From positions 4,401-68,400 of the forward strand of contig CALSND010000004.1 in the NCBI GenBank assembly GCA_943787625.1: 64,000 bases of DNA, read 5' to 3'. The notes below the pieces were generated by a model. It ran no database searches. It saw only the letters and a program-made list of their open reading frames with translations, and was not told where the DNA came from. Shown here in pieces: positions 24,058-43,286 of this stretch. Source of the stretch: an uncultured Gammaproteobacteria bacterium. Lineage in GTDB: Bacteria; Pseudomonadota; Gammaproteobacteria; Ga0077536. A program made the translations under genes and the position numbers. Within the stretch, counting starts at the first letter, position 1; every line of letters starts with the position of its first letter.

Positions 24058-24876
24058 TTACTTACCTTTAAATTCTGGAGTACGCTTCTCAAAAAAAGCA
24101 TTGACCGCTTCCATATGGTCTTCAGTATGCTGCAACGTCACTTGCAAGGCGGCAGACATTTCCATAATTGAGTCAAAACTTGCCATTGTACCGTCTCGCA
24201 TCAGCTTTTTAGTCATCCTTAGTGCTTGAGGGGGTTGGACACAAATTTTTTCCGCCAAAGCTTCTGCCTCAGCTAAAACATCTTGATCGGGATACACTTC
24301 AGATACCAAACCCCAATCTTTAGCAGTATCGGCGTCAATTAGATCACCAGTGAAGAATAACTGAGCTGCTCTGGACCAGCCGATCTGCCGAGGCAGTAAC
24401 CAGGCGCCGCCATCACCGGGCAGTATGCCTAGCTTTAGAAAAGTCGCTCCAAACTTGGCTGATTTCGCAGCTAACCTGATATCGCAGAGGGAGGCGATGT
24501 CGCCACCCAGGCCTATTGCCGCCCCATTGATGGCACCAACAATAGGAACTTCGATATTCCACATTGCTTTTACGATTCCATGAATACTTTCGCGGTAATG
24601 GTCTCGCAGCTGGAGGGCATTGCCACCAAAGTGACCAGTTCTTTCTTTCATGGACTTTAAATCGCCACCAGCAGAGAAGGCTTTTCCCGCACCAGTCATA
24701 ATGACACATCTTAAATTCTTATTACTGTTTATAACATTAGCAGCTTCGGAGAAGCGTTCCCCATCACGCGCGTGCCCTAAAGGGTTTCTCGTGTCAGGTC
24801 TATTAATAGTTAGCCTGGCTATGACACCTTTAGTTTGAAGAATTAATTCATCGTCAATTGAGATTTCATTTTTCAT
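24058..24876 (-). CDS. enoyl-CoA hydratase/isomerase (crotonase family)
   Basis: GAGKAFSAGGDLK oxyanion-hole motif. 272 aa. Confidence 0.9.
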   Translation of the reverse strand: MKNEISIDDELILQTKGVIARLTINRPDTRNPLGHARDGERFSEAANVINSNKNLRCVIMTGAGKAFSAGGDLKSMKERTGHFGGNALQLRDHYRESIHGIVKAMWNIEVPIVGAINGAAIGLGGDIASLCDIRLAAKSAKFGATFLKLGILPGDGGAWLLPRQIGWSRAAQLFFTGDLIDADTAKDWGLVSEVYPDQDVLAEAEALAEKICVQPPQALRMTKKLMRDGTMASFDSIMEMSAALQVTLQHTEDHMEAVNAFFEKRTPEFKGK

Positions 24877-24891
24877 AATAAACTCCGTCTG

Positions 24892-25923
24892 TTAAGCCGT
24901 GATAATAGGCCAAATTTCGTTGCCGCCGTTTTCTACAGCGAGCTTACCTAGCTCTTCTCCCCAATACGCTACACCCCCATATTCTGTGCGCCAAGCCCAC
25001 ATCCTGCGAGTGAGGAAATGAAGCCCGTATTCGTATGTAAACCCAATGGCACCATGGATTTGATGACTTAAGCGGGTAATTTTTTCCACCGCCTCACTAG
25101 CTCGACATTTCGCGGCTGCTATTTCAAATCGCGCATTACGTTGGTTATCAGTTATTCCTGAGAGGTCCAACCGAGCACAAGCGGCAATTGCGATAGCATC
25201 AACTGATGCTACAAGGCCAGCTAAGTCTGCGAGGTGATGTTGGATTGCTTGGAATTTAGCCAACGATCTACCAAACTGCTCTCGGTCGCTGGCGTATGTT
25301 ACCGCGAGATCTAAAGCGGCAGCGCTGGCACCACCTATTTGGATACTTCGTACCAATGCGCCTAGGTATAGCAAAGAGTCGTTGTCTAGATTGGTCGGAA
25401 ATCTATCTAAAATTCTGGCTTCTCCTGAAATTCGATCCCGAGGGTCACGCCCCAAATTATTTTGATTTGCTACCTCTTGTTTTTGCGCTTCCAATATAAA
25501 AAGTTCCGAGTCATGAATCGCCATGTAGTAGCTACAGCGGCTTCCCCATGGGACAATACTTTTGTTCAGAGAAAACTTACTTTCTTTGATGGAAAACCCT
25601 TGAGTTAATAGGCCAGGAATTCCTTCGGGCAGTTCTGCCCCAGATTGTCGCGCAACCCATTGTCCCAAAATTGCTTCAGATACGGGGAGGGGAACGGTAT
25701 ATCTCCCACAAGCTCTTAGTACGGGGTATGCGTCACTCCAAGAGGCTTCAATACCACCTGAGGATTCACTGGCCAGGACCTTGTCAATTCCTTGCTCTAT
25801 TACTCTGCCCCAGAGTGACTCAGGCCATTCTATTTTTTCGTAGCGCGTGAGGGCATCCCAATCAAGTTCATCCTCAAATAACCTAGACACGCTCTCGTGC
25901 AGCATATTCTGTAATTCGTTCAT
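24892..25923 (-). CDS. short acyl-CoA-dehydrogenase-family protein (probable partner subunit of a heteromeric ACAD)
   Basis: 343 aa. ACAD C-terminal domain (FGRSLAKFQAIQHHLA; IGFTYEYGLHFLTRRMWAW). Its start overlaps the stop of the upstream ACAD gene by 4 nt. Confidence 0.75.
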   Translation of the reverse strand: MNELQNMLHESVSRLFEDELDWDALTRYEKIEWPESLWGRVIEQGIDKVLASESSGGIEASWSDAYPVLRACGRYTVPLPVSEAILGQWVARQSGAELPEGIPGLLTQGFSIKESKFSLNKSIVPWGSRCSYYMAIHDSELFILEAQKQEVANQNNLGRDPRDRISGEARILDRFPTNLDNDSLLYLGALVRSIQIGGASAAALDLAVTYASDREQFGRSLAKFQAIQHHLADLAGLVASVDAIAIAACARLDLSGITDNQRNARFEIAAAKCRASEAVEKITRLSHQIHGAIGFTYEYGLHFLTRRMWAWRTEYGGVAYWGEELGKLAVENGGNEIWPIITA

Positions 25924-27086
25924 CTGATCCCCATCCCTTTAGCGATTATTCCGCGCATTATTTCCGGTGTACCCCCTCTTAATGAAAAAGACGGAGCGAT
26001 TTGTATCAAGTTCCCAAGGATCTGTTGGTATGGCACCCCATGACCCTCAAGGGTTGGTTCTAGATCGCAGAGTTCTTGTGCTAGGCCTGGCAGGGTTTGC
26101 TCGAATTGACATCCTAGGTCTTTCACCACGGACGCGGCTAAAGTTGGATTCTCGCCCGCGTGTAGTTGTGAGGCAATGCTTAGAGACATTGTTCTAAGTG
26201 TCGTTGCCCACGCAACCTGAGTACCTATTTTTGCCAATATTGCCGGATTTGCGCAATCTTTTAATACGTCGATGAGTTCACGTAAAAGGTAGAAGCAGGA
26301 CAAGTATCGCTCTGGTCCGCTTCGTTCTAGCGCTAGTTCTTCGGTCACCTGCTTCCAGCCTTCCCCTTCAGTGCCTATCAAGGCATCGGCAGGGAGCTCT
26401 ACATCGACAAAGGATACTTCGTTGAAATTTTTTCCACCCGCAAGATTTTCTATCGTTCTGGGCGTTATACCTTTAGTTTTTTTCAGATCTATTAAAAATT
26501 GAGATAGTCCCGCATGCTTTTTATCTGGATCGGGATCGCTTCTGAATAGGGCTATCATATAGTCGGCGCGATGCGCCTGGCTGGTCCATATTTTAGTTCC
26601 GTTGACAAGCCAACCGTTTTCAGTTTTTTCCGCTTTGGTCCTAAGAGAAGCCAAATCGGAACCAGAATTAGGCTCACTCATCCCAATACAAAAGCACGCC
26701 TTCCCTGCTGTTATTTTAGGAATGATCTCTTTTTTTTGCGCCTCATTACCGTATCGAGTTAAAAGTGTTCCACTTTGTCTATCCGCAACCCAGTGAAAAC
26801 CTGTCGGCGCACCGGCTACCAAGCATTCCTCGACCACGACATAGCGCTCGAAGGCAGAGCAACCTTGTCCGCCATATTGTTTAGGGAGTGTCATGCCGAG
26901 CCATCCACGTTCACCGAGCTTGGCACTGAATTCTGCGTCATATGCTTCCCAACTATGACTACGTTTTACCACTGAATATTCTTGCAACTCGTCCGTTAAA
27001 AAAGCCCGAACTTCTTGCCGTAATACATGCAAATCAGCTGGTAATTGACAAGGATCAAACCTAAGTTTATCTGCAATAGACTCCAT
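25920..27086 (-). CDS. acyl-CoA dehydrogenase family protein
   Basis: 388 aa. MSEPNSGSDLAS motif, WTSQAH, and a C-terminal GGTPEIMRGIIAKGMG. Confidence 0.85.
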   Translation of the reverse strand: MESIADKLRFDPCQLPADLHVLRQEVRAFLTDELQEYSVVKRSHSWEAYDAEFSAKLGERGWLGMTLPKQYGGQGCSAFERYVVVEECLVAGAPTGFHWVADRQSGTLLTRYGNEAQKKEIIPKITAGKACFCIGMSEPNSGSDLASLRTKAEKTENGWLVNGTKIWTSQAHRADYMIALFRSDPDPDKKHAGLSQFLIDLKKTKGITPRTIENLAGGKNFNEVSFVDVELPADALIGTEGEGWKQVTEELALERSGPERYLSCFYLLRELIDVLKDCANPAILAKIGTQVAWATTLRTMSLSIASQLHAGENPTLAASVVKDLGCQFEQTLPGLAQELCDLEPTLEGHGVPYQQILGNLIQIAPSFSLRGGTPEIMRGIIAKGMGIR

Positions 27087-27143
27087 AATTAAACCTTATA
27101 TTTTTCAGTTAGTTGAAATATTAAAGTGATATTTAAGATTAAG

Positions 27144-28211
27144 TTATACTAATTGAGCATACTTCCATGCTTCTTCCGCAAATACCTCCACATACTCTGT
27201 TGAACGGTAAGCGTCAGCACTGGCGGCAGTACCATCTTCTACGCGTTTAACGATACCCTGATAGATAGCGGCGAGCCTCCACATAGTGTACGCCTTGTAA
27301 AATTCTAAGTTTTCAATTTCATTGCGATCAGTAAGTTTACAGTACATTGAAATGTATTCTTCTTCTGTAGGTATCCCCATCTCTGACAGATTGAGTCCGG
27401 ATAAACTTGAGATACCTTCCATGTTCGGAAGCATCCAAGGAGCAAGATGATAAACAAAATCCCCCAAAGGATGGCCTAACGTAGATAACTCCCAGTCGAG
27501 TACTGCTATCACTTTAGGTTCTGTTGGATGACATACCATATTGTCAAGTCTGTAGTCTCCGTGTATTACTGAAAGCTCTTGGGAGTCTGGGATGTTGTCG
27601 GGAAGCCATTTATTCAATTTGTCCATTAGAGGAATCTTTTTAGTTTCCGATGCTACATAAATTTTACTCCATCTATGAACTTGTCTTGCGATATAGTTTT
27701 CGGTCTTACCGAATCCATCAAGGCCAATCTCTGATGGATTTATTTTCTGCAGTCGCGCTAAAGTTTCCAACTTTGAGCGATAGATGTTTGTTCGTTCCGA
27801 TTTAGTCTGATCGGGTAATGATAGGTCCCAAAAGATCCTGCCATCGACCATTTCCATGACATAAAACATAGTCCCAATTACGTCCACATCTTCACAAAGC
27901 GCATATGCTTTCGGTATGGGGAAGTCGGTTTTTCCTAAGGCAGCGATAACACGATACTCTCTATCCACCGCGTGTGCTGACGGCATAAGAACACCTGGGG
28001 GTTTCCTTCTCAGTACATAGCGATTAGTTGGAGTAATGAGTTGGTACGTCGGGTTTGATTGACCACCTTTGAATTCTTTGACAGTCAATGGGCCGGAGAA
28101 ATCCGCCACATTTTCGTCCATCCAAGCACTAAGCTTAAGGTGATCGAACGACAAGTGTTGTTGTACCTCTTTCGTTCCAGAAAATTTGTGCTGCCTTTCA
28201 GTCATTATCAA
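27144..28211 (-). CDS. APH-type phosphotransferase (the kinase family associated with ACADs, as in the ACAD10/11 N-terminal domain)
   Basis: Catalytic loop HGDYRLDNM and VLDWELSTLGHPLGD. 355 aa. Confidence 0.8.
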   Translation of the reverse strand: MIMTERQHKFSGTKEVQQHLSFDHLKLSAWMDENVADFSGPLTVKEFKGGQSNPTYQLITPTNRYVLRRKPPGVLMPSAHAVDREYRVIAALGKTDFPIPKAYALCEDVDVIGTMFYVMEMVDGRIFWDLSLPDQTKSERTNIYRSKLETLARLQKINPSEIGLDGFGKTENYIARQVHRWSKIYVASETKKIPLMDKLNKWLPDNIPDSQELSVIHGDYRLDNMVCHPTEPKVIAVLDWELSTLGHPLGDFVYHLAPWMLPNMEGISSLSGLNLSEMGIPTEEEYISMYCKLTDRNEIENLEFYKAYTMWRLAAIYQGIVKRVEDGTAASADAYRSTEYVEVFAEEAWKYAQLV

Positions 28212-28228
28212 CCTTCCTATTGTATTAG

Positions 28229-29437
28229 TTACGCTACGATATTAGTGTCGTGTAGCTTTCCGATTGTCGCACTATCTAGGTTAAGCAATTCAGATAGTAT
28301 CTCGTCAGTGTGTTGACCCACGATTGGCGCTGGCTGAGGCGACTTCCTCTCTATTTCTGAAAAATGCATCGCACCGCTGGGCACAGGATATTTTCCGATG
28401 CCCGGCTGTTCAATAGTTTCAAATATAGGGTTGTCGTCGGAACAATCGGGATCTTCCTCTACCAATTTTTTTACGGATTGGTATTTATCCCAACAGATCC
28501 CGCATGCATCAAACATTTTCCCAACAACCTCTAGGGGATTTCTGCTGAACCATGGCTCAAGCAACCGAGACAATTCCACTCGACCTTCAAAACGCCCGCC
28601 TTCAGTGGAGAAGTCTAGTTGCATAAGATGCTCTAGCTGCGCCACCTCATCGCTGATTCCGGTCGCTTTAAGTAAACCGGCCCATTGTTTCGCATTTATC
28701 GCTATCAGCATTATTCGCTCGCCGTCGGACGTTTTGAAATCTCGACCAAGCGCGCCGTACAAGTAGTTACCATGTCGTTGTCGTTCGTGCTTGTTGACCA
28801 TGACCTCTCCAATGTAGCCCAGGTGTCCCATTGTACTTAGCGCTACATCAGCTAAAGCCAACTTAATTTGCTGACCTTTACCTGTTATTCTCCTGTGCCT
28901 CTCAGCTGCCAATATATCTATGGCTGCAAGGTAGGCTGTGGTGATGTCCCAAGCGGGTAGCACATGATTGACAGGCCGGTCGTCATCTGGATGACCAGTG
29001 AGATAAGGAAAGCCGACTTTTGCGTTTACCGTATAATCTAGTGCAGTACCGCCATGGCGATCTCCGACGATTTCGTGTTGTATCAGATCATTTCGTCTTT
29101 TTGACAACTCTTCGTATGAAAGCCAACCTCGCGCTGGTAAGTTGGTGGAGAAAATCCCTGCGTCGGATCCTTCAGCACAGATCAACTGACAGACAATTTC
29201 TTTTCCTTCGTCCGACTTTAAGTCTACTGCGATAGATCGCTTTCCTTTGTTCATCTCCGCCCAATATATACTCGTATTATCTTCAGTGACTGGCCAGCGA
29301 CGATAATCCATGCCGCCACCGATCTGATCAAATCTGATCACGTCGGCACCTAATTGCGCTAATGTCATTCCACACATTGGGGCTGCGATAAAAGCAGAAC
29401 CTTCAATTATCCGTAGACCTTTTAGTATTGGCTGCAT
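28229..29437 (-). CDS. family-III CoA-transferase
   Basis: LKGLRIIEGSAFIAAPMCGMTLAQLGADVIRFD. 402 aa. Confidence 0.85.
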   Translation of the reverse strand: MQPILKGLRIIEGSAFIAAPMCGMTLAQLGADVIRFDQIGGGMDYRRWPVTEDNTSIYWAEMNKGKRSIAVDLKSDEGKEIVCQLICAEGSDAGIFSTNLPARGWLSYEELSKRRNDLIQHEIVGDRHGGTALDYTVNAKVGFPYLTGHPDDDRPVNHVLPAWDITTAYLAAIDILAAERHRRITGKGQQIKLALADVALSTMGHLGYIGEVMVNKHERQRHGNYLYGALGRDFKTSDGERIMLIAINAKQWAGLLKATGISDEVAQLEHLMQLDFSTEGGRFEGRVELSRLLEPWFSRNPLEVVGKMFDACGICWDKYQSVKKLVEEDPDCSDDNPIFETIEQPGIGKYPVPSGAMHFSEIERKSPQPAPIVGQHTDEILSELLNLDSATIGKLHDTNIVA

Positions 29438-29464
29438 AGTATTTTGATACCTGTGAGTAAGTGT

Positions 29465-30319
29465 TTATTCTATGCCAGCGTTACCGTTATTCAGCACTAA
29501 TACATCTCTTTCTATAGACGATGCTCTAAACTGGATTTTAGAACCTTCGGACCATATCTCAGTGCGTAATGTTTCTCCCGGCATAAATGGCGCAGAAAAT
29601 CGCACACCCAATGACGTAAGCCTATGCGCTTGATAATTGCAACAACTTCGGATGAGTGCGTGCATGGCGACTCCTAACGTACAGCGACCATGTAAGATTG
29701 GCGCACTAAAGCCAACAGACGTTGCGACACTTGGATCGGCGTGTAGGGGATTCATGTCACCATTTAATCGGTATAGTAGCGCCGCTTGGGGAAGAGTAGG
29801 CAGATCGCAGACTATGTCGGGCTTTCGTTCCGGTGGAGCTGGCATAGCACTTCTTGGCTTGCTGTCTCCTCCGAACCCCCCATCACCTCGGGCTAACGTA
29901 TTAGATGTCACTGTTGCATAGTGCTTACTTTTATCTGCCGAATATAGGTCTTTCTTAGAATATACGAAGCATCCTTTGTCAGAACCTCGGTCAACAACAT
30001 CTTCTACCACCGTTTTGCCGTAGATCTTGCCTTCAATTGGCAGTGGGCAATGGATTTCGATAAATTCTTCAGCGTGCAGCACTTTTTGCCATTCGAAGCC
30101 ATAGCTTTTTTCTTTCATCCAGAAGCCTGGATAGTTTACAACCATTGCCATTCCTGGCAGCGATTGGCCACCATCTTCATAGACATAAGGCAATTGTCTG
30201 GAGTCCAGCGGATCACTCCCGAATCCAAGCGAGAGAGCATAAATTAGCGTGTCTTTGATGTCTACTTGAGTGACACTTTCGTGAATAGTTTTACCGATAA
30301 GGTCGGAATGATCTTTCAT
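29465..30319 (-). CDS. MaoC-type (R)-specific enoyl-CoA hydratase 2, double hot-dog (MFE-2 hydratase-like)
   Basis: Hydratase-2 motif YRLNGDMNPLHADPSVA. 284 aa. Confidence 0.8.
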   Translation of the reverse strand: MKDHSDLIGKTIHESVTQVDIKDTLIYALSLGFGSDPLDSRQLPYVYEDGGQSLPGMAMVVNYPGFWMKEKSYGFEWQKVLHAEEFIEIHCPLPIEGKIYGKTVVEDVVDRGSDKGCFVYSKKDLYSADKSKHYATVTSNTLARGDGGFGGDSKPRSAMPAPPERKPDIVCDLPTLPQAALLYRLNGDMNPLHADPSVATSVGFSAPILHGRCTLGVAMHALIRSCCNYQAHRLTSLGVRFSAPFMPGETLRTEIWSEGSKIQFRASSIERDVLVLNNGNAGIE

Positions 30320-30390
30320 GAGGATACCCTAAAATTATGGAGCCGAATGTCTCACCTATAGCTCTTCAGTTAAAATTTCTACTATTTTAT

Positions 30391-31302
30391 CTATACCGGA
30401 TCCCAAGGCCAGATATCTTGAGACCGTGCAAGGTCATAGAAGTCTGACTTGAGTGCAGGAGCGGCGTGCTCAGCAATAGTTTCTGGGGTCCAACCCTCAC
30501 CGCGGTGTATAGATCGAATAGGTCGATTTTGGCTCATGAGAAAAATTTCATTATTCCTCACTGCAAAAATTTGTCCCGAAACCTCATGGGCTTGATCGGA
30601 GAGCAGATATATTGCCATGGGGGCAATTTTATCTGGCGTCATTTCTTTCAGCCTCTCTACACGTTCCTTTTGGGCCTCGTCGGTGATGGGGATCGTGCCT
30701 ATCATCCGGGTCCAGGCGAAAGGGGCTATACAGTTACTCCGCACATTATAGCGCCCCATATCCAAGGCAATACTTTTTGAAAGAGCGACTATTCCTAGCT
30801 TGGCCGCTGCATAATTAGCCTGTCCAAAGTTCCCAATCAAGCCACTAGTCGAAGTCATGTGCACAAACGAACCAGTTTCTCGTTCCCGAAAATGATCTGC
30901 TGCCGCACGACTTACATAAAAGGTACCGTTTAAATGGACATCAATTACAGCCTGCCACTCATCTAAGCTCATTTTATGGAACATTCTGTCCCGTAAAATT
31001 CCCGCGTTATTAATTACGCAGTCCAGCTGACCAAAATTATTTATAGCGTCAGAAACCATAGCTTTTGCATCGTCATAGTTTGATACACTTCCGAAATTAG
31101 CAACAGCCTCGCCCCCTAGCGCAGTTATTTCCTTGACTACTTCTTGAGCAGGACGTCCCTCGATATCTTGTCCATCGGTGCTGGCGCCTAAATCGTTCAC
31201 TACTACCTTGGCTCCAGCTTGTGCCATCGCAAGAGAATAATCCCGACCAATTCCTCGTCCTCCACCTGTCACTAGGACTACCTTTCCAGCAAGCATATTC
31301 AT
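30391..31302 (-). CDS. SDR, MFE-2-type (3R)-hydroxyacyl-CoA dehydrogenase-like
   Basis: VLVTGGGRGIGR and YAAAKLG. About 300 aa with the C-terminal extension typical of MFE-2 dehydrogenase domains. Confidence 0.8.
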   Translation of the reverse strand: MNMLAGKVVLVTGGGRGIGRDYSLAMAQAGAKVVVNDLGASTDGQDIEGRPAQEVVKEITALGGEAVANFGSVSNYDDAKAMVSDAINNFGQLDCVINNAGILRDRMFHKMSLDEWQAVIDVHLNGTFYVSRAAADHFRERETGSFVHMTSTSGLIGNFGQANYAAAKLGIVALSKSIALDMGRYNVRSNCIAPFAWTRMIGTIPITDEAQKERVERLKEMTPDKIAPMAIYLLSDQAHEVSGQIFAVRNNEIFLMSQNRPIRSIHRGEGWTPETIAEHAAPALKSDFYDLARSQDIWPWDPV

Positions 31303-31511
31303 TCTGTTCTCCCGTAATATAGTTTAGCCCAAGGCTTAGGCCGTTAATTATCCCGCGTGCAAATCATATATGTTTTCAATACGTTCTAATAAGCCTTTTT
31401 AGTCTACGCGGCTTATAGTTTTTATCATCTGAGCCTATTTGGTATCATATCACTCCGATATCGTTATTCAATACAGTAACGGTCCGCGCGCATAATTGAA
31501 GGAGTTGATAG

Positions 31512-32282
31512 GTGGCGAACCCGATTTCAAGTTTACATATACAGGCTATAAAAGGTATTCCACTAATCCATGATGGCGATCAGTTGGACTCGATTATCCT
31601 GAGCGGTCTTAAATCAAATGGAGTCGAACTTGAAAGCGGGGACATCGTGGTTGTTGCGCAAAAAATAGTATCTAAAGCCGAAGGAAGGTTAGTTAGGCTG
31701 AGTGATGTAAATGCAGGGGAAGATGCCACGAAATTGGCGGAAGAAACTGAGAAGGACCCAAGACTGGTGCAACTCATTCTAAACGAGTCGACTGAGGTAG
31801 TGCGAAAAAAAGCCGGCGTACTAATAGTACGACATAATCTCGGACATATTGGGGCTAATGCTGGTATCGATCAATCAAATATCGAGAATGATGATGAATA
31901 CGCGCTTCTATTGCCCTCCGATCCTGATAGTTCTGCAGTGAAATTGAAATTTCAACTTGATTCTGCATTAGATGTTGACCTAGGGGTGTTAATTGTTGAC
32001 AGCCATAACAGACCCTGGAGGATGGGCACAATAGGTGGAGCAATCGGCTGTGCTGGATTTCAAGTGTTAGACGATCAAAGAGGCGGGGTCGATCTTTTTG
32101 ATAGAGAACTGAAAGTAACGCTTATAAACAGAGCTGATTCCATTGCGGCGTTAGCTACTTTAATAATGGGCGAAACCACAGAGATGACACCAGTCGCGAT
32201 AGTAAAAGGGTTCGCCAATGACGAACTCGATGGCAGAGCAAGTGAGATTAATCGTCCGAAAGAAGAAGATTTGTTCCAATAA
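31512..32282 (+). CDS. cofE: coenzyme F420-0:L-glutamate ligase (stand-alone CofE, no FbiB-type C-terminal domain)
   Basis: GTG start with AAGGAG upstream. CofE blocks VVVAQKIVSKAEGR, GANAGIDQSN, DSHNRPWR. 256 aa. Confidence 0.85.
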   Translation: MANPISSLHIQAIKGIPLIHDGDQLDSIILSGLKSNGVELESGDIVVVAQKIVSKAEGRLVRLSDVNAGEDATKLAEETEKDPRLVQLILNESTEVVRKKAGVLIVRHNLGHIGANAGIDQSNIENDDEYALLLPSDPDSSAVKLKFQLDSALDVDLGVLIVDSHNRPWRMGTIGGAIGCAGFQVLDDQRGGVDLFDRELKVTLINRADSIAALATLIMGETTEMTPVAIVKGFANDELDGRASEINRPKEEDLFQ

Positions 32283-32297
32283 ACTCTGGTAAACAGT

Positions 32298-33257
32298 ATG
32301 AAAAAATTTTTAGCAATTTCTGGTGGAGTCGGCGGAGCAAAACTTGGTCTGGGTTTAACAAAAATATTAAATGAGGACCAGTTGTCATTTCTAGTGAATA
32401 CTGGAGACGACTTTAAGCACGCCGGTGTCAATATTAGCCCAGATATTGATACGTTAATGTATACATTGTCAGGCTTAAACAATCAAGAACTGGGCTGGGG
32501 ACGGGCTGACGAATCTTGGGCTTTTTTGGACTCATTTAAAACTTTAGGAGGAGAATCGTGGTTCCAATTAGGTGACAGAGATCTTGCGGTACATCTGCGT
32601 AGAACTGAGTTACTTGATAGCGGACAATCACTTTCAGAGGTGACAGCTGAGCTTTTTAGTCGACTCGGGGTCAAGTATCGATGCTGGCCAATGAGTGAAA
32701 CTCAGGTATCCACAAAAGTCTATACTGATGATGGTTTGCTGAGCTTCCAACATTATTTTGTGCGTGATCATTGCGGGCACGAAGTCAAATCCATCATGTT
32801 TGATGGATTTGAACAGGCGCAGCCACCACAAGGCCTAATTGATTATTTTGACGACCCAGATTTGGCAGGAGTAATCATTTGCCCCTCTAATCCATATTTG
32901 AGTATTGATCCAATTCTGTCTGTTAAAAGTATCCGTAAAGCATTATCGAGTTGTGGCGCCCCAGTGATAGCGATATCTCCGATAATAAATGGCGAAGCTG
33001 TCAAAGGGCCAACTTCAAAAATTATGGCGGAACTTAAATTAGAACTCTCCGCCAAAACTGTCGCGCTGCACTACGACGGCCTAATCAATGGGTTTGTACT
33101 GGATACACTCGACCAGCAGATAGTTGGCGAAATTGAAGACACGGGATGTGCGGTTTTAGTTACGAACACTATGATGAATACACTAGACGAAAAGGCAGTT
33201 CTAGCGCAGACTGTTTTAGAATTTTGTGATAATTTGGGCGAATTGAAATGTGGGTAG
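32298..33257 (+). CDS. cofD: 2-phospho-L-lactate (or analogue) transferase
   Basis: ISGGVGGAKLGLGL, NTGDDFKHAGVNISPDIDTLMYTL, GWG..ESW, LGDRDLAVHL, CPSNPYLSIDPIL, SPIINGEAVKGP. These are all CofD/FbiA family hallmarks. Confidence 0.85.
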   Translation: MKKFLAISGGVGGAKLGLGLTKILNEDQLSFLVNTGDDFKHAGVNISPDIDTLMYTLSGLNNQELGWGRADESWAFLDSFKTLGGESWFQLGDRDLAVHLRRTELLDSGQSLSEVTAELFSRLGVKYRCWPMSETQVSTKVYTDDGLLSFQHYFVRDHCGHEVKSIMFDGFEQAQPPQGLIDYFDDPDLAGVIICPSNPYLSIDPILSVKSIRKALSSCGAPVIAISPIINGEAVKGPTSKIMAELKLELSAKTVALHYDGLINGFVLDTLDQQIVGEIEDTGCAVLVTNTMMNTLDEKAVLAQTVLEFCDNLGELKCG

Positions 33258-33949
33258 TTGTTCCCGTCAAACGATTTTATAACGCAAAAACCCGGCTAGC
33301 AAACATCCTATCCGACGCGGAGCGAGAATCACTTGCCCAAGTTATGCTTAATGATGTACTTTTGGCTATCTCTAATTCTCATTTGGTATCTGGCATTCTT
33401 GTAATCTCAACTGAAATCCGAGCACGCTACTCAGTGGAGAGGTTAGGAGGACTTTTTTTAGAAGAAAAGCAAGCCGGCTTGTCGGCTGCGGTCGCGCAGG
33501 CTGGGGGTTGGCTTTCTAAGCACGGTCAGCGTGGGCTAATGATGATTCCCGGTGATGTGCCACTGGTAAGAAGCGCGGATTTAGATCATATTATTCAAAG
33601 TCACGATAGTGAGTCAGGTCTAACCATCGTTCCAGATATTGAGCGAGATGGAACAAACGCGTTAGTGGTAAGTCCGGTAGATTTGATTGATTTTTCGTTC
33701 GGTCGGCAAAGTTTTGCAAAGCATTTGAAGGCATCCAAAAAGAAAGGGGTGTCAACAAAGATCCTCGAGTCTAGTGGGCTTTCGTTGGATGTGGATAACG
33801 TGATGGATCTTCAAATGCTATTATCGTTCGATAATGAAACAGAAACACTCGCGTATCTAGCGGATAGCGGTATAGCCAGGCGAGTCTTGCCAAGGTTAGA
33901 TAAGAATGCTGATAATGTGGGTATTGGTGCAGCATCCCGACTCATGTAG
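33248..33949 (+). CDS. cofC: phospho-C3-acid guanylyltransferase (CofC/FbiD type)
   Basis: VVPVKRFYNAKTRL N-terminus and ERDGTNALVVSP. It overlaps the cofD 3' end by 10 nt. 233 aa. Confidence 0.75.
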   Translation: MWVVVPVKRFYNAKTRLANILSDAERESLAQVMLNDVLLAISNSHLVSGILVISTEIRARYSVERLGGLFLEEKQAGLSAAVAQAGGWLSKHGQRGLMMIPGDVPLVRSADLDHIIQSHDSESGLTIVPDIERDGTNALVVSPVDLIDFSFGRQSFAKHLKASKKKGVSTKILESSGLSLDVDNVMDLQMLLSFDNETETLAYLADSGIARRVLPRLDKNADNVGIGAASRLM

Positions 33950-36283
33950 TTGAAAGTGGCGCAGTATGAAAAACAGGTTCTTTTAATGAAACATGAATAC
34001 ATAACACGTGAAGAAGCGTTAGCTTTATCTGATAGAGAAGACCTCGCAACACTTATGGCGCTTGCGGCTGATCTGAGAGATTCAGAGTTTGGAAACTGCG
34101 TCACTTACTCTCGAAAAATTTTCATCCCTTTGACTCAGTTGTGTCGAGACGTCTGTCACTACTGTACCTTCGCAAAGGCTCCAAAAAAATTGGGCAATGC
34201 TTACCTGCCACTTGATCAAGTTGTCGAGATCGCTGTTGAAGGTAAAGCGAGAGGCTGCAAAGAGGCGCTATTTACACTAGGCGAGAAGCCGGAACTTAGA
34301 TACAAAACTGCTAGGACTGCCTTGTCGAAAATGGGTTATGAGACGACCTTAGAGTACTTGCGTGATGCTGCTGATGCAGTCTTTCAAGAGACTGGTATAT
34401 TGCCTCACATGAATCCAGGAACATTGACTTCTGATGAATGCGCTATGCTCAGGAAAGTGTCGCCTAGCATGGGTATCATGCTGGAATCGGCAAGTGAGAG
34501 ATTATGTGAGAAGGGGATGCCTCATTTTGGATCTCCAGATAAGGCGCCAAAAGTTAGACTGGAAACGCTTCGAAACGCTGGTGTCGCCAAAATCCCGTTT
34601 ACTACCGGTATATTAATAGGTATTGGAGAAACTCGTCGGGAGCGTGTTGAATCCCTTTTGGCTATCCGAGACATACATATAGAATACGGTCATATACAAG
34701 AAATTATTGTACAAAATTTTAGAGCAAAGCCTGATACAAAAATGCACAACAACCCGGATCCTGATCTGGAAGAGATGCTCTGGACTCTAGCGATTGCCAG
34801 GATTATTTTTGGTTCGAAAATGAGTATACAAGCGCCGCCTAATCTGAGTCCTGATAGTTTGCCTCGTTTGGTAGAGGCTGGTATCAATGATTGGGGTGGG
34901 GTATCACCGTTAACTCCAGATCATGTAAATCCGGAGGCACCGTGGCCACACTTGGATAAATTATTTGACGACACAGCGGCTGTTGGAAAATTCCTGCACG
35001 AACGACTCACCATTTATCCCCACTATGTGAATAATTCTGGCGAATGGGTTGACGATCGGTTCGTCGCGCCACTGATGCAATGTACGGATTCCGAGGGTTA
35101 TCCTAGAACCGATGATTGGTCACCCGGTGATGAAGTAGAACCCCCTGAATCAATAATCAATTTGATTACCTCTCCCGTTCGGAAGGTTTCTAATGAAGTG
35201 TCGGTCATTTTAGACAAGGTAGTACAGCAGCAGTTACTAGACGACGAGGAAATCTCGAGATTATTTAAAGTTAGAGGTGACGACTTCAGCGCTGTGTGTC
35301 AATTAGCAAACCAACTTAGGGAAACAGCTAATAACGACGAGGTATCATTTGTTGTTAACAGAAACATAAATTATACAAACGTCTGTTATTTCAAATGCCA
35401 ATTTTGTGCTTTTTCAAAAGGCAAGTTGAGTGAAAACCTCAGAGGTAAACCTTATAATTTAGATCATGCAGAAATTCAAAGACGGGTAAAGGAGGCATGG
35501 GATCGAGGTGCGACCGAGGTCTGTATGCAAGGGGGTATACATCCTCAGTATACCGGAGAGACTTATGTCGAAATCCTGAAATCCGTGAAAACTATATCTC
35601 CTGATATGCATGTACACGCTTTTTCACCGCTCGAAGTCTGGCAAGGTGCGGCCACACTGGGTCTTGCATTAGAAGATTACCTACTTCGTTTAAAAGAGGC
35701 TGGTTTGAACACACTCCCGGGTACGGCTGGCGAAGTTTTAGATGATGAAGTCAGAGCAATTATCTGTGCCGATAAAATAAATACTGAAGAATGGTTGAGC
35801 GTGATGAGGGCGGCGCATCATGTCGGGTTTCAGACTACCGCTACTATCATGTATGGGCATGTCGATCGGGCGATCAATTGGGCTCGGCATCTAAGACGTG
35901 TTCGTGATTTGCAGATAGAGACGGGCGGTTTTACCGAATTTGTTCCACTGCCATTCGTTCACATGGAGGCGCCATTATACCTCAAAGGTAAAGCACGGAA
36001 GGGGCCTACTTTCCGAGAATCTATCTTAATGCATGCTGTTGCTCGAGTAGTGCTATATCCCTATATAAAGAATATTCAAACGTCATGGGTAAAGATGGGC
36101 CATTCTGGGGTAGTGGCTTGTCTTAATGCTGGCGCCAATGATCTCGGGGGCACATTAATGAATGAGAGTATTACCAGAGCTGCTGGCGCATCGTATGGTC
36201 AAGAAACATCTCCTGATGAAATGTTGTCTATGATTCGATCAGCAGGTAGAGTGCCTAGGCAGAGAAATACGGCTATACGGTGA
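33950..36283 (+). CDS. fbiC: FO (7,8-didemethyl-8-hydroxy-5-deazariboflavin) synthase, fused CofG/CofH
   Basis: Two radical-SAM cysteine triads, CRDVCHYCTF (N-terminal half) and CYFKCQFCAF (C-terminal half). About 770 aa. The start is uncertain (TTG 33950, GTG 33956 or ATG 33986). The 3' end may be truncated by a 1-nt insertion near 36267; the shifted frame reads ...RNTLYGDVSDERVRAG... to a stop at 36411-36413. Confidence 0.9.
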   Translation: MKVAQYEKQVLLMKHEYITREEALALSDREDLATLMALAADLRDSEFGNCVTYSRKIFIPLTQLCRDVCHYCTFAKAPKKLGNAYLPLDQVVEIAVEGKARGCKEALFTLGEKPELRYKTARTALSKMGYETTLEYLRDAADAVFQETGILPHMNPGTLTSDECAMLRKVSPSMGIMLESASERLCEKGMPHFGSPDKAPKVRLETLRNAGVAKIPFTTGILIGIGETRRERVESLLAIRDIHIEYGHIQEIIVQNFRAKPDTKMHNNPDPDLEEMLWTLAIARIIFGSKMSIQAPPNLSPDSLPRLVEAGINDWGGVSPLTPDHVNPEAPWPHLDKLFDDTAAVGKFLHERLTIYPHYVNNSGEWVDDRFVAPLMQCTDSEGYPRTDDWSPGDEVEPPESIINLITSPVRKVSNEVSVILDKVVQQQLLDDEEISRLFKVRGDDFSAVCQLANQLRETANNDEVSFVVNRNINYTNVCYFKCQFCAFSKGKLSENLRGKPYNLDHAEIQRRVKEAWDRGATEVCMQGGIHPQYTGETYVEILKSVKTISPDMHVHAFSPLEVWQGAATLGLALEDYLLRLKEAGLNTLPGTAGEVLDDEVRAIICADKINTEEWLSVMRAAHHVGFQTTATIMYGHVDRAINWARHLRRVRDLQIETGGFTEFVPLPFVHMEAPLYLKGKARKGPTFRESILMHAVARVVLYPYIKNIQTSWVKMGHSGVVACLNAGANDLGGTLMNESITRAAGASYGQETSPDEMLSMIRSAGRVPRQRNTAIR

Positions 36284-36431
36284 CGTAAGCGATGAGCGGG
36301 TTCGGGCAGGTAGAGAGGCTCAAGAGCTTGAGCTTATCGTGAACACACCAGCGAAGAAATATCAGCGCTCGGATCGAATCCCATTACACCGCCATCGTGC
36401 GGGTATAAAGTAGCTTCGGAGGGAAATTGTA

Positions 36432-37645
36432 GTGAATGTGCCTAAGCATCTAATGAACGGCTATCGCGTGTTGGATATGACTCATGTTTTGGCAGGACCC
36501 AGTGCGACTCGACTGTTCGCGGAGATGGGCGCGGAAGTCATTAAAATAGAATTCCCACCTGATGGAGACATCACCCGTGCACTTCCTGCTATCAAAGAAG
36601 GGCGTAGTGCCTATTTTGCCCAGCAAAATAGGGGCAAGCTCAGTGTTTGTTTGGACGTGAAGACGGAGGAAGGCAAACAAGTACTGAGAGACCTGATCAA
36701 GATATCGGATGTGTTTGTTGAGAATTTTGCTCCTGGAGTGATCAAACGCTTAGGGTTTTCATGGGACGATGTGAAGGCGATTAATCCAAAAATTATCATG
36801 TGCTCAATTTCTGCATTTGGTCAAGAAGGCGAACTATCTGCGCTGCCCGGCTTCGATTATATCGCGCAAGCCTATAGTGGAATAATGGGAATGATTGGAG
36901 AAAAAGACGGCCCTCCCATGTTTCCGATGGCTGGTATAGGAGACGTAATGACTGGCGCTCATGCTGCGTGTGCTGTAGGTTTTGCGCTTCTTCATAGGGA
37001 GAAGGGGGGAGAGGGTCAATACCTAGATATCTCTCTTTTAGATTCCTACATGCATTGTCACGAACTCAATTTACAGGTGTATAGTGCGGCAGGTATTGAG
37101 ACGACGCGGTCGGGTCACCACCATTGGGCTGTTTGTCCTCTGGGACTATTTAAAGGAAAGGATCATTATATCTGCATTATTGCGCTACAACCGCAGTGGC
37201 CTGGTGTTTGTAAGGCAATCGGACGGCCTGAACTGATAGACGACCCCAAATACAGTACTAATGAGAAACGTTTGGAAAATTCGGCAGAGGTTATTGAGAT
37301 TGTTCAATTCTGGTTAGATTTGCAAGATTCTGATGAGTCAATATTAGCGGCATTAGAGTCGGAACGAGTACCCTGTGCTCCAGTCCTTAGTATTCCCGAG
37401 GTTATCAACCACAACCATATGAAAGAGCGAGGGTGTGGTCAGAAAGATCAGCGATCCGAAGTTAGGCGAGGTGGAGGTTCCAGGCATGCCGCTGCGGTTT
37501 TCCGCGTTTGAGCATAACCAACATCTTGGAGACCGCCGCTTTGGGTGAGCACAACTGCGAAGTTTTGAACGGCTTGCTCAAATACTCGCCGCAGAAGACT
37601 GAGGAGCTCAATCAGTCGGGCGTTCTGTATATCGGAATACACTGA
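36432..37645 (+). pseudogene. family-III CoA-transferase with two C-terminal frameshifts (pseudogene or sequencing error)
   Basis: The N-terminus MNGYRVLDMTHVLAGPSATRLFAEMGAEVIKIE is intact. Near 37430 the frame must shift to read GVVRKISDPKLGEVEVPGMPLRFSAFEHNQHL. Near 37530 it must shift again to read ETAALGEHNCEVLNGLLKYSPQKTEELNQSGVLYIGIH, with a stop at 37643-37645. Confidence 0.75.
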
Positions 37646-37659
37646 AACGTAGTAAGTCG

Positions 37660-39194
37660 TTACTGCTGCTGTCGGCTGAGTTCTGTGTCCGCGTCTATAA
37701 ATCTCCTCGAGAAGCTCAGGACAATTGTGCTGACGAGTCCCAGGATTGTTAGAGCCATAAAAATATGAGCGAGCGGCATGGCCTCATAAAGTCCTGCCAC
37801 GCGTCCGCCTGCGTAAGATCCTATCGAACTTGCTAAAAACCAGATACCCATTGTGAGGCTGGCTATTCTCTGGGGAGCGAGTTTACTCATCGCGCTCAAC
37901 CCGACCGGGCTTAAGCACATTTCGCCCATCGTATGCAGTAGGTACATAACCACCAGCCACAATGGGCTTACTAACTTGACCGGAGTCTGCGATTATGGCA
38001 GCGCCAATCATCACGCCATAGCCCATTGATATTAATAGACAGCCCAATCACAAATTTCGCAGTTGTGTTAGGACCCTTTGAACCTAGCTTGAACCACAAC
38101 CAGCTAAAGGCTGGACCCAGGAGAAAAATAATGAAACAGCGGATTCAGCGATTGCATCCAACTGGCTGGGAAATCTGATCCCTACAATCGTCCTCGAGGT
38201 GTTTCGTTCGGCGAACAGCGTCAGTGTTGATCCGCCCTGTTCGAAAAGCGACCAAAACACAGTAGCCGCTAGAAATAGACAGTAGTATCTTGGTCATGAC
38301 TCGCCGTCTGTCCTCCGCGATATTCCAGGATGATCCGAGTAGCCACGCGAAAAACGCAATGGTTGTGCCAAGCAGGATCAAGCCAAAGACATTGCCGAAC
38401 TGAGATGGCGATAGACGAATATTACGCTCACGCTATATATCCACGCAGCGATTAAACTGACACACGAATATCATGACGCACATTCTGAGCGAGAAGCTGC
38501 TTGCCTTCAGGAGGGTCTCCTATTTTCACTAACGTACTTCTGCCATAAACATAGTGCAGGAGCCCCAGCGCCATTCCTACGGCTGCCGCGCCGAAAGAGA
38601 AATGCCAGGCATTGACAGGGTTTATGCCTCGTCGCTAGAAAGTAGTCTCTCGGAAATAGACGCCTTGGCCCAGCCAACCGCACACTAGAGGCGATGCGAA
38701 CGCTCCTATATTTATGCCCATGTAATAAAGCGAGTAGCCGGCATCTCGACGTTGGTCGCGCTCGGAGTAAAGTTGCCCAACCATGGAACTGATGTTTGGC
38801 TTTAGTAAACCTGTACCTATGACTAGTAGGGCCAGTCCGGTATAGAAATACGTGATGCTTAGGGAGTGCCAGTACTATGTGTCCACACATGATGATGCAC
38901 CCACCTACTGAGTGTAGCTCGTCTTTGGCCGACAAAGCGGTCGGCAATCCAACCGCCAGGAAGACAGGCAAGATAAACCATGGAGGTATATATCCCGTAT
39001 ATAGCGCCAGCGTCTGCAACGCCTAAACCCAAACCTCCTTTTGCCAAAGGCGTGGTCATAAAAAGGATTAATATAGCGCGCATTCCATAGTAAGAAAAAC
39101 GCTCCCACATTTCAGTAAAGAAGAGAGTTTGGAGTCCTTTTGGGTGTCCAAAAAAAGTAGGTGTCGTGTCAGTCATTATGCGCTTGTGGTCCAT
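37660..39194 (-). pseudogene. POT/PTR2-family di-/tripeptide:proton symporter, heavily degraded
   Basis: Fragments in all three minus-strand frames. N-terminus: MDHKR...[23 protein letters not shown]...[14 protein letters not shown]. Middle: [15 protein letters not shown]; [64 protein letters not shown]; NAWHFSFGAAAVGMALG. C-terminus: ORF 37660-37962. There is also an in-frame TAG at 38635-38637. The overall length (about 511 codons) is preserved. Confidence 0.8.
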
Positions 39195-39226
39195 GCCATT
39201 TGAGAAATGTAACGTGCGTTATTGCG

Positions 39227-40082
39227 TCACATATTACTAATTTTTTTTCTACTTTTGAATCCTAGGTAAGTCAACAGTGTTAATCCCGCCAGAATTAATA
39301 CCATTCCGACAGAATCGTCTCTTTGTATCGTCTCTCCAAGGTGCCACGAGGCAGTGGCTAAGCGCGATCACTGGAACCAGCAGTGTGAGCATGCTCGTCA
39401 TCCCAGCATTGAGCTTATCAAGCAAATAGACCCACAGTAACCAGCCTAGACCAGTGGATAGAAAACCAGTCGCACAAAGCGCAAAAGTGAATCTAGCTGT
39501 TATTGTTGGGAGCTGTTCGTTCATGAAGAATGCTATAGCAAATAAGCCGATTGCTCCGACTGCCATTTGTGACGCAGTGAGTACGAGAAGATCCATCGGT
39601 CGATTTTCCAGAATATACTTTACAATTATCGATGCTATCGCCCAACTTATCGCCGCGGCTAGGGCAGCTAAGTTACTTGTCGTGATGCCATATAAATCAT
39701 GCGGTTTTAGCATTAAAATTAGTCCAGAGAATGCTAATATTATTGCAAACCACTGTATTCCTCTTATCCGCTCGTCTAGGATTGGCCAAGCTAATAACAA
39801 TGTCCAAAACGGGTAAGTAAACATAAGCATCGATGTTCGAGTCGCTGAGGCATCAACCAGTGCGAATTGTATTAATCCGACTGAGCCAAGGGTATTAAAG
39901 AGACTAAGAAGAAGGATATCTTTATATCTCGATAGCGGAATAGTTCGATGAGTAGCAACTATTACAACAAATAGCATCAAGGAACCGAGTAGGGTCCTCA
40001 AACCGGAAAATACGAAAGGTCCTGAATCTAATAGGCCGATTTTCATGAAAACCCATGAATAACCCCAGAAAAGCGATAGCAC
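39227..40082 (-). pseudogene. EamA/DMT-family transporter with a C-terminal frameshift (pseudogene or sequencing error)
   Basis: Ten-helix hydrophobic profile. Near 39365 the frame must shift to read ...VIAL|ATASWHLGETIQRDDSVGMVLILAGLTLLTYLGFKSRKKISNM, with a stop at 39227-39229. The N-terminus may extend to 40115 (LKNKYTIVAVAV...), but only with a non-ATG codon. Confidence 0.7.
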
Positions 40083-40964: not shown

Positions 40965-41843
40965 TTAAAACAAGCCTCCGGCAAGCTCAGATAACTCCTC
41001 GAGCATTGAGGATTGCTCGGAGGATTGCAGCCAAACAACAATACCATCGGCTCCTGCATCGGCTACCGCTGCCATATCAGTTTTTGTTCGGAAAAAACCA
41101 TCAGGGGCAAACATTGTTATGTCTAGCTCGGAGGGGTTTCGGTCGAAAGCTTTCGCATGCTTGGTAATTTCTTTCCTTCCATCAACTAACTCTTGAGGAT
41201 CTACGCTGAAAGGCAACCAGCCATTCCCCCATTTTGCTACACGCTTAAAGACCAATGGGGTACCGATGCTACCTAGGAGAACTGGCGGGTGAGGTCTACG
41301 GTGAGGCATTGGCTTACAAATAATTCTAGGGAAGTCATAATATTTGCCGTGATGCTCAACATACTCGCCAGTCCACAGGGCTTTCATTACGTCAACGTTC
41401 TCTTTTGTTTGCGTCCATCGGTGATCAAAATCACCGCCCAATACTTCACATTCTGGTTTGTTCCATCCGGCACCAATACCCAAGAGGAACCTCCCCTTGG
41501 AATAATGATCGAGGCTGGCAATAGCTTTAGCGGTCATTATGGGATTGCGTTCAGGTAAAAGTGTAATCCCCGTGCCTAGTTCGATCGTGGTTGTGTTCGC
41601 AGACGCCCTGGTCAGAGCAATCAAAGGATCTGGCATTTTGAATAAGTAGTCAGGAGTTTCTTGACCTGGCACTTTCCCGGGATAATCGTCTGCTGAGCCT
41701 TCGGGTATGACGGTATGTTCGGCTGTCCAATAAGAAGAAAAACCAAGTTCTTCAGCTTTTTTTGCTATAACCGCGGGGTCACCAGTCTCCATGTCGGATA
41801 AGACTTGGAAAACTCCCACTTTCATTCCTTTAAATAATTTCAT
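40965..41843 (-). CDS. luciferase-like monooxygenase (LLM) family oxidoreductase, resembles F420-dependent subfamilies
   Basis: ATG at 41843 is preceded by GAGGGG. LLM blocks AEHTVIP, LLPERNPIMTAKAIASLDHYSKGRFLLGIGAGWNKPE, HHGKYYDF. Confidence 0.75.
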   Translation of the reverse strand: MKLFKGMKVGVFQVLSDMETGDPAVIAKKAEELGFSSYWTAEHTVIPEGSADDYPGKVPGQETPDYLFKMPDPLIALTRASANTTTIELGTGITLLPERNPIMTAKAIASLDHYSKGRFLLGIGAGWNKPECEVLGGDFDHRWTQTKENVDVMKALWTGEYVEHHGKYYDFPRIICKPMPHRRPHPPVLLGSIGTPLVFKRVAKWGNGWLPFSVDPQELVDGRKEITKHAKAFDRNPSELDITMFAPDGFFRTKTDMAAVADAGADGIVVWLQSSEQSSMLEELSELAGGLF

Positions 41844-42127
41844 AGTTGCCCCTCGGTTCAAATTATTGTTATCCACTACTACCGCAACAAGGCTTTGACC
41901 TTCCCGCGCAATTTTCAAGAAATTATAGGCATAACCGTTTCGTTTTGTCAGCTTTGATAGCGTGTGCGGTATTAACGGGCTTTTTTGCGTGTAGCGATAC
42001 TGATAAACCTAAGTGTGGGAAGATCTTGATTTTAAACCTTTTCGGGAACAGAATTAGGATTAGTGGCGAGTACGTAACTTATTAGCACGCAGGATAAGAC
42101 TTAATTAGTATAACGGGAGATAAAGCA

Positions 42128-43231: not shown

Positions 43232-43286
43232 TATAAATTTATTTTTAGTAATATTTAATGATTTTACGTTTAGGAGAAAATGTCGG

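Follow-up and report, generated by a model that had tools for sequence, protein, structure and literature searches.

A 64,000-nucleotide stretch of contig CALSND010000004.1 (positions 4,401 to 68,400 of the forward strand; assembly GCA_943787625.1), which comes from an uncultured gammaproteobacterium of the lineage Ga0077536 and is called the window throughout, carries on its plus strand four genes, cofE-cofD-cofC-fbiC, for the biosynthesis of the deazaflavin cofactor F420. Judging by their profile matches, these genes almost certainly constitute a real F420 biosynthesis operon, and the locus as a whole is best explained, in our view with good confidence, as a working and vertically inherited F420 unit that would serve the luciferase-like monooxygenases (LLMs) and the acyl-CoA pathway encoded beside it. 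The new element is that F420 biosynthesis, LLMs of F420-dependent classes and an acyl-CoA operon with an ACAD11-type kinase are physically linked throughout the clade, and that a linked enzyme reducing F420 or dehydro-F420 (DF420) is apparently lacking beside the operon.

The F420 genes and the cofactor are established in Alpha- and Betaproteobacteria, where the physiological role is listed as unknown (PMC8498797), and this agrees with what an earlier reading of the window from its letters alone (the sequence-only reading) had stated about Proteobacteria in general. Gammaproteobacteria go unmentioned in that 2021 review, and our literature search found no paper on F420 in this gammaproteobacterial lineage; public annotation already names proteins from metagenome-assembled genomes (MAGs) of the clade as F420 enzymes.

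The F420 biosynthesis operon

The window's list of open reading frames (ORFs) and a profile search place the four genes at 31512-36283 on the plus strand. The first, cofE (31512-32282, 256 aa, GTG start), encodes a stand-alone F420-0:gamma-glutamyl ligase (TIGR01916, PF01996); cofD (32298-33257, 319 aa) a 2-phospho-L-lactate (2-PL) or enolpyruvyl-diphospho-5'-guanosine (EPPG) transferase (TIGR01819, PF01933); cofC (33248-33949, 233 aa) a guanylyltransferase (TIGR03552, PF01983); and fbiC, a fused CofG/CofH FO synthase (NF006687) that ends at 36283 and begins either with TTG at 33950 (777 aa) or with ATG at 33986 (765 aa), the latter being the likely start and the one that gene callers use. A gap of 15 nt separates cofE from cofD, cofD and cofC overlap by 10 nt, and fbiC abuts cofC with the TTG start or follows it after 36 nt with the ATG start.

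Family membership was judged by the curated NCBIfam cutoffs, with Pfam as a second check. CofE scores 248.5 bits against TIGR01916 (cutoff 180.65), covering profile positions 2-244 of 244, and 242.9 bits against PF01996 of Pfam; CofD scores 275.8 against TIGR01819 (cutoff 257.45; positions 3-300 of 301), and CofC 157.7 against the NCBIfam model TIGR03552 (cutoff 105). FbiC reaches 1132.4 against the bifunctional CofGH model NF006687 (cutoff 1018), its halves scoring 489.6 against the CofG model TIGR03550 (cutoff 213) and 573.0 against the CofH model TIGR03551 (cutoff 374), and each half of the translation holds one radical-SAM CxxxCxxC triad, CRDVCHYC and CYFKCQFC, as had been noticed from the sequence. 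The Pfam scan is concordant with NCBIfam for all of these genes, and because the E-values of the four proteins run from 1e-46 to 0, chance is excluded as the source of the family matches. The aspartates of CofC that bind Mg (D103, D181 and D183) are invariant across the clade alignment, D103 being aligned to D116 of the Mycetohabitans enzyme.

The profile check that the sequence-only reading had proposed, with the NCBIfam/TIGRFAM models for CofC, CofD, CofE, CofG and CofH, thus passed every cutoff, and its assignment of four contiguous or overlapping plus-strand genes is borne out. Its description of them as the full set of dedicated F420 genes holds if 2-PL is the substrate, but not on a route from phosphoenolpyruvate (PEP), for which a DF420-0 reductase is needed as well. 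Upstream of cofE, a divergent intergenic region of 209 bp (31303-31511) leads to the first gene of a minus-strand operon and presumably contains a bidirectional promoter. A promoter and terminator scan was uninformative: site counts equalled those of shuffled sequence, and no terminator was found between fbiC and the CoA-transferase gene behind it.

Selection and inheritance

The sister species L013, a MAG from Tara Oceans whose CofC is 92% identical, served as the reference: against it dN/dS is 0.036 for cofE, 0.064 for cofD, 0.071 for cofC and 0.033 for the available part of fbiC; against more distant relatives the ratio is unusable, dS being saturated. These values indicate strong purifying selection on all four genes. 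The GC content of the operon (0.43-0.45) is equal to that of its flanks. The CofC homologs fall into a large clade of proteins of 233 aa that stem from MAGs of uncultured marine Gammaproteobacteria, and no close CofC relative from another phylum was found, since identity drops outside the clade to 31-39%, to sequences from many phyla. Because the composition equals that of the flanks and no close donor was found outside the clade, the operon appears to be vertically inherited and selected, with no recent acquisition; a recent horizontal transfer, which was considered, is unsupported on the same two grounds. The exact CofD protein of the window is present on 18 metagenome contigs.

Neighbouring genes and their conserved linkage

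A large acyl-CoA catabolic operon (22560-31302, minus strand) is transcribed divergently from the F420 genes, as the sequence-only reading had recognised, and Pfam, NCBIfam and structure matches allow its genes to be assigned. It encodes a short-chain dehydrogenase/reductase (SDR; 30391-31302), a MaoC/hydratase-2 protein (29465-30319), an Mct-like family III CoA-transferase (28229-29437), an ACAD11-type kinase of 355 aa (27144-28211), a heteromeric pair of acyl-CoA dehydrogenase (ACAD) subunits (25920-27086 and 24892-25923), a crotonase (24058-24876), a YkvI-type membrane protein of 364 aa with about 10 hydrophobic segments (22937-24031) and, as its last gene, RidA. Alignment of the kinase to the ACAD11 kinase domain (8V3V; E 7.9e-78, residues 11-348 against 6-349) runs from end to end, and the stand-alone bacterial homolog 3DXP is matched with an E-value of 1.9e-111. 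ACAD10 and ACAD11 phosphorylate 4-hydroxyacyl-CoAs and then eliminate the phosphate, upon which the product enters beta-oxidation (PMC12440821, PMC11342911). The ACAD pair is most similar to the heteromeric 4X28 type (ChsE4/ChsE5), to which its large subunit was aligned, and looks like a heteromeric enzyme of the ChsE4/5 or PimCD type; by family, the SDR and the MaoC protein correspond to a split MFE-2; and one of the CoA-transferases is similar to intramolecular mesaconyl-CoA transferase (532 bits, cutoff 725). The operon is a candidate for a bacterial pathway that degrades 4-hydroxy or dicarboxylic acids.

On the other side of the F420 genes, a family III CoA-transferase gene (PF02515; 36432-37511, plus strand) begins 18 nt past fbiC and is probably co-transcribed with it. 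Its product is truncated here by insertions and measures 404 aa in relatives; the intact version in the near-identical contig L001 scores under all equivalog cutoffs.

The sequence-only reading had overlooked the LLM genes of the neighbourhood, of which the window encodes six, three of them above the cutoffs of F420-dependent classes and two more within 6 bits. LLM1 (40965-41918, minus strand) scores 224.5 and LLM3 (43209-44300, plus strand, called start near 43287) 172.4 against TIGR03619 (cutoff 166.9), and LLM6 (55739-56779, plus strand) 379.7 against TIGR03559 (cutoff 335), which places all three in F420-dependent classes. LLM4 (45607-46530, plus strand; 161.5) and LLM5 (54631-55647, plus strand; 161.0) lie just under the TIGR03619 cutoff, LLM4 also scoring 174.8 against TIGR03854 (cutoff 295.6), and LLM2 (42128-43231, plus strand) is below all NCBIfam cutoffs, with an ambiguous cofactor class. 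In relatives LLM3 is kept at 82-97% identity, and at least eight of their loci have an LLM1-type gene placed directly between cofE and the divergent operon; in L093 it is an LLM1 paralog (TIGR03619 234.6) that abuts cofE. By these class assignments, putative users of F420 are likely encoded near the operon. A DUF3047 protein of 352 aa (44358-45416, minus strand) is encoded amid the LLM genes and is present in L093 as well.

About 30 species-level marine MAGs have the acyl-CoA operon beside their F420 genes. Synteny was counted in the 18 clade loci of at least 15 kb, where the neighbourhood retains the SDR in 14, the MaoC protein and the Mct-like CoA-transferase in 16 each, the kinase in 15 and the large ACAD subunit in 14, with a CoA-transferase directly after fbiC in 15; the same gene order is kept down to 40-49% CofC identity. 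The arrangement is absent from two betaproteobacterial loci (L044 and L045). The link between the F420 genes and the acyl-CoA operon is clade-wide and not incidental.

Side-chain precursor

CofE matches the FbiB model NF009810 only at positions 11-243 of 449 and remains below its cutoff (189 against 304), the FbiB-type C-terminal nitroreductase domain being absent; the description of CofE as a stand-alone ligase of 256 aa without that domain was therefore correct. The closest solved structure to CofC is that of the 3-phospho-D-glycerate (3-PG) guanylyltransferase 7P97 (E 1.4e-18). In Mycetohabitans CofC, Ser162 is diagnostic for the use of 3-PG, with contributions from Met91 and Cys95, and S162G and other non-conservative mutants of this residue moved the preference from 3-PG to 2-PL and PEP (Hasan et al., PMC8764529). 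Aligned to 7P97, the CofC of the window has Gly152 at the S162 position, Leu78 at M91 and Val82 at C95, and glycine occupies position 152 in 29/29 aligned clade sequences. It carries neither the Ser/Thr at S162 by which a 3-PG-activating CofC is recognised nor the supporting Met91 and Cys95; on this alignment, its Gly/Leu/Val combination represents the states of 2-PL/PEP enzymes. Because Gly152 stands at the diagnostic serine position and is invariant in the clade, 3PG-F420 is unlikely, and the product is very probably a lactyl-type F420 and not one of the 3PG type.

CofC assays were unable to tell 2-PL from PEP (PMC8764529), and the two cannot be distinguished from sequence. The sequence-only reading had left the precursor open among 2-PL, PEP and 3-PG; of this, the place of 3-PG is no longer tenable as an equal choice given Gly152, and the ambiguity between 2-PL and PEP stands. 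In genomes, the PEP route is usually indicated by a nitroreductase-type reductase in the form of FbiE or of FbiB's C-terminal domain (PMC8498797).

Search for F420- and DF420-reducing enzymes

The search for reductases covered the called genes of window equivalents (about 1.5-64 kb of the 64 kb), +/-10 kb around the operon in two distant clade members, and flank ORFs of other clade loci. Among the called window-equivalent genes there was no Fno (PF03807), Fgd or nitroreductase, and no Fno, Fgd, nitroreductase or FbiE was found within +/-10 kb in the two distant members. The clade flanks contributed 65 ORFs (49 clusters) without matches in the window, of which 20 were of appropriate size, and none of these 20 was an Fno or a nitroreductase: they were DUF4124, Fae, HAD, MarR, GNAT, LigB, methyltransferase, hydrolase or transposase ORFs, or unassigned. 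The sequence-only reading, which had seen neither an Fno-type F420:NADPH oxidoreductase nor an evident DF420-0 reductase in the window, is upheld in both respects over this range. As Fgd candidates the LLMs score 43-53 against a cutoff of 420 where the Fgd model TIGR03554 is listed among their matches. The 364-aa protein of the acyl-CoA operon, which fits no family, was considered as a hidden DF420 reductase and rejected, as it is a YkvI-like polytopic membrane protein.

Integrity of fbiC and sequence quality

In the window fbiC stops at 36283, and no ORF ends at position 36413, which the sequence-only reading had given as the end of the operon. Compared with the near-identical contigs L001 and L002, the window has one extra T at 36274, which shifts the frame and leads to the stop at 36283. 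The intact fbiC of the near-identical contigs would end at the window equivalent of 36413, and the out-of-frame remainder (36284-36413, plus strand) encodes a non-conserved C-terminal tail in intact relatives. The contigs L001-L006 are 99.3-99.9% identical to the window, and all five that are readable to the end of fbiC (L001, L002, L003, L004 and L006) have an intact gene of 808 aa without the insertion. The intact protein of L001 scores 1142.7 against NF006687 and by residue 766 has covered the CofH profile to its end; the truncation costs FbiC 43 residues, namely the last 1-4 CofH profile positions and a non-conserved tail of 39 residues, and barely alters the CofH score (573 in the window against 577 bits in the intact protein).

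The frameshift is one of a series. Besides 36274, about ten isolated indels of 1 nt are scattered over the window, with a single deletion among them, and several break genes. Relative to a same-population contig, insertions lie at 31510, 36274, 47750, 51774, 51899, 52021, 52344, 54681 and 63954, and the sole deletion at 58813; fbiC, a zinc-dependent alcohol dehydrogenase (Zn-ADH) gene, an acetone-carboxylase gamma-like gene and a hydantoinase B gene are frameshifted, and the insertion near 31510 falls in the intergenic region, 2 nt upstream of the GTG start of cofE. The pattern suggests that the window derives from an assembly with insertion-biased errors. Since the near-identical contigs are intact and the other indels show this bias, the fbiC frameshift is probably an assembly error and no real truncation.

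At 37400-39500 lies a patch with about 109 substitutions, 25 insertions and no deletions relative to three contigs that are otherwise near-identical to the window. The substitutions are directional: 96 of the 109 fall at A:T pairs of the reference, and each of the 69 transitions replaces a reference A/T by G/C in the window, with the two strands interleaved and without a sequence context; local GC rises to 0.49. The patch disrupts two genes, the 3' end of that for the CoA-transferase and that for a POT transporter, and could be a technical artefact or real hypermutation.

Alternative explanations

If the variant 3PG-F420 were the product, as it is in Mycetohabitans rhizoxinica, a stand-alone CofE without a reductase would be explained, and this reading draws on the 3-PG enzyme 7P97 being the best structural match of CofC and on a single-domain CofE with no nitroreductase found nearby. 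The residues speak differently: the diagnostic serine is a glycine here and throughout the clade alignment, Met91 and Cys95 are replaced by Leu and Val, and S162G is among the non-conservative exchanges that turn the Mycetohabitans enzyme towards 2-PL and PEP (PMC8764529); on these diagnostic CofC residues a 3PG-type product was rejected as very improbable. A more serious contender, to which we nevertheless give rather less than an even chance, is a PEP route whose DF420-0 reductase is unlinked or unrecognised, or on which DF420 itself is the working cofactor. We know of no source of 2-PL in bacteria, and the inspection covered the 64-kb window and flanks of +/-10 kb. Stand-alone reductases exist in Chloroflexi (PMC8498797), and 2-PL and PEP are inseparable in CofC assays (PMC8764529). 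On the other hand, no PF00881-type gene was found among the called window-equivalent genes or the checked clade flank ORFs, and the single operon protein without a family is a polytopic membrane protein and no reductase.

Several points weigh against an F420 unit that serves its neighbours. The names of the F420-dependent LLM families rest on phylogenetic profiling, that is, on co-occurrence with F420 biosynthesis, and not on biochemistry, and LLM2 fits no LLM class; the ACAD that accompanies the kinase resembles ChsE4/5 and not the dehydrogenase domain of ACAD11, which lies outside its top 60 structure matches; and with neither a linked F420 reducer (Fno or Fgd) nor a linked DF420-0 reductase (FbiE or a nitroreductase) found, redox cycling is unaccounted for, as is, on the PEP route, maturation of the cofactor. 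All syntenic genomes belong to one gammaproteobacterial lineage, and both betaproteobacterial loci are without the arrangement, so the conserved order could reflect shared descent instead of a functional link. That the F420 genes lie beside the acyl-CoA operon and the LLMs would then be inherited gene order without functional meaning, a view to which the uninformative promoter and terminator scans add; but the order persists to 40-49% CofC identity although more distant flanks vary, at least eight loci have an F420-class LLM placed immediately between the two operons, and LLMs of F420-dependent classes need the cofactor, and we therefore hold this to be unlikely, if not negligibly so. Decay of the operon in this genome is still less probable: the insertion in fbiC and the damaged stretch at 37.4-39.5 kb, with its two broken genes, might be read as real pseudogenisation, but the loss touches only the extreme end of the CofH profile and a non-conserved tail, the remaining operon is without defects at dN/dS of 0.03-0.07, fbiC is intact in five other contigs of the population, and insertion-only errors across the window point to a technical cause.

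Comparison with known systems

The same four dedicated genes occur in Gram-negative hosts among the Alpha- and Betaproteobacteria, such as Paracoccus denitrificans, Oligotropha carboxidovorans and Mycetohabitans rhizoxinica, and a fused FbiC with a stand-alone CofE, as found here, is the usual proteobacterial layout (PMC8498797). The host in our case belongs, unlike these, to a marine lineage of uncultured Gammaproteobacteria. Fno is present in Betaproteobacteria and, together with Fgd, in Alphaproteobacteria, whereas neither enzyme was found near the present operon, and M. rhizoxinica is without known F420-dependent enzymes, whereas here there is a conserved and tight linkage to F420-class LLMs and an acyl-CoA operon (PMC8498797 for the earlier systems). 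With the mycobacterial FbiA/FbiB/FbiC/FbiD pathway, which follows the PEP route, the locus shares homologous CofC/FbiD, CofD/FbiA and FbiC proteins, and its CofC pocket is FbiD-like, with Leu in the position of L92 and Gly in that of G163; mycobacterial FbiB, however, has the C-terminal nitroreductase domain that reduces DF420-0 and that CofE is without here, and a stand-alone FbiE was not found among the genes checked. Archaeal CofC/CofD/CofE follow the 2-PL route, need no reductase and include a single-domain CofE, as is the case here, and the best NCBIfam matches of our proteins are the archaeal-type CofE, CofD and CofC equivalogs; the FO synthase is split into CofG and CofH in archaea and fused as FbiC here.

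The kinase of the acyl-CoA operon is homologous to that of the 4-hydroxy acid catabolism of ACAD10/ACAD11 in mammals and to bacterial 3DXP, and its gene adjoins ACAD and MFE-2-type hydratase/dehydrogenase genes. It differs from ACAD11 in that kinase and ACAD are separate genes and in that the ACAD pair is heteromeric and ChsE4/ChsE5-like (4X28). To our knowledge there is no link between ACAD10/11 and F420.

SAR202 bacteria (Chloroflexi) carry LLMs of the FMN/F420 type, CaiB-type CoA-transferases and SDRs, a repertoire described for the oxidation of dissolved organic matter in the dark ocean (PMC5395668). The window shares with it multiple LLM paralogs, several family III CoA-transferases, SDRs and clustered acyl-CoA enzymes, but belongs to another phylum and has the F420 biosynthetic genes within the island itself, so that F420 would be the cofactor of its LLMs. 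The wider window holds four family III CoA-transferases, several more ACADs, crotonases, thiolases, a metallo-beta-lactamase-fold protein and an acetone-carboxylase-like hydantoinase set, and this content reinforces its likely nature as a catabolic island much like the SAR202 repertoire.

Proposed function

From the family membership of the four proteins, FbiC would make the deazaflavin core FO, CofC would activate a C3 acid with GTP, CofD would transfer the activated acid to FO, and the single-domain CofE would add the gamma-glutamyl tail. The C3 acid is presumably 2-PL or PEP and not 3-PG, which would yield ordinary F420 of the lactyl type; on a route from PEP, the DF420 intermediate would have to be reduced by an unlinked enzyme. 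We propose that the cofactor serves the F420-class LLM oxidoreductases encoded beside the operon, and that these, with the acyl-CoA operon and the co-oriented CoA-transferase, degrade a hydroxy-, oxo- or branched carboxylic acid. The parts for such a degradation would be the YkvI-type transporter, a CoA-transferase/isomerase, the homolog of the ACAD11-type 4-hydroxyacyl-CoA kinase, the heteromeric ACAD and the split MFE-2 hydratase/dehydrogenase, with the F420-class LLMs supplying or removing hydride in a pathway for hydroxy-, oxo- or dicarboxylic acids. Judged from gene content, we consider it somewhat more probable than the contrary that F420 serves this neighbouring LLM/acyl-CoA pathway.

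A more specific and more speculative idea, which we regard as tentative and on balance unlikely in its full form, is that, across a widespread marine clade of uncultured Gammaproteobacteria, F420 serves one catabolic pathway as its dedicated cofactor, along a route through the LLMs, the kinase and MFE-2. The LLMs would act on oxo-, hydroxy- or lactone-type carboxylic acids, which would be passed on as CoA thioesters through an ACAD11-like kinase/eliminase step and then into MFE-2-type beta-oxidation, and one LLM might reduce F420 in a non-canonical way, without Fno or Fgd.

Other features of the window and of related loci

An acetone/acetophenone-carboxylase-like cluster (47300-54245, minus strand) contains hydantoinase A, hydantoinase B and gamma-subunit-like genes as well as those for an FAA-hydrolase-family protein and a Zn-ADH, with LLM genes on its flanks. 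At 5116-12793 lies a set of MMPL/RND-like, DUF1302, HEAT-like and DUF1329 genes, in which the DUF1302 ORF is split in the window. A stretch within the DUF1302 gene (8000-10500) is hypervariable: compared with the strains L009 and L010 it shows symmetric substitutions and indels, which fits a surface protein that has diverged between strains in the ordinary way. Scanning the window for Rfam families and tRNAs gave no matches.

A more distant clade member encodes Fae about 5 kb downstream of its F420 operon (L039:14564-15109; PF08714, E 2.5e-57), which hints at tetrahydromethanopterin-linked C1 metabolism in that genome. The MAG records of L018, L037 and L039 are titled Klebsiella pneumoniae or 'uncultured Enterobacteriaceae' yet carry the marine-type F420/acyl-CoA cluster, and these labels look wrong. 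In L018 an insertion sequence (DUF772 and a DDE transposase) lies just downstream of the cluster.

Implications

The locus leaves existing knowledge of how F420 is made unchanged. It narrows the precursor question, 3-PG being unlikely, and draws attention to a lineage whose operon has no linked reductase for DF420 and no known one for F420. The conserved context provides a short list of proteins and substrates to test, and with it a lead on the role of F420 in Proteobacteria. Were F420 indeed dedicated to one catabolic pathway in this clade, this would be the first defined physiological role of the cofactor in Proteobacteria.

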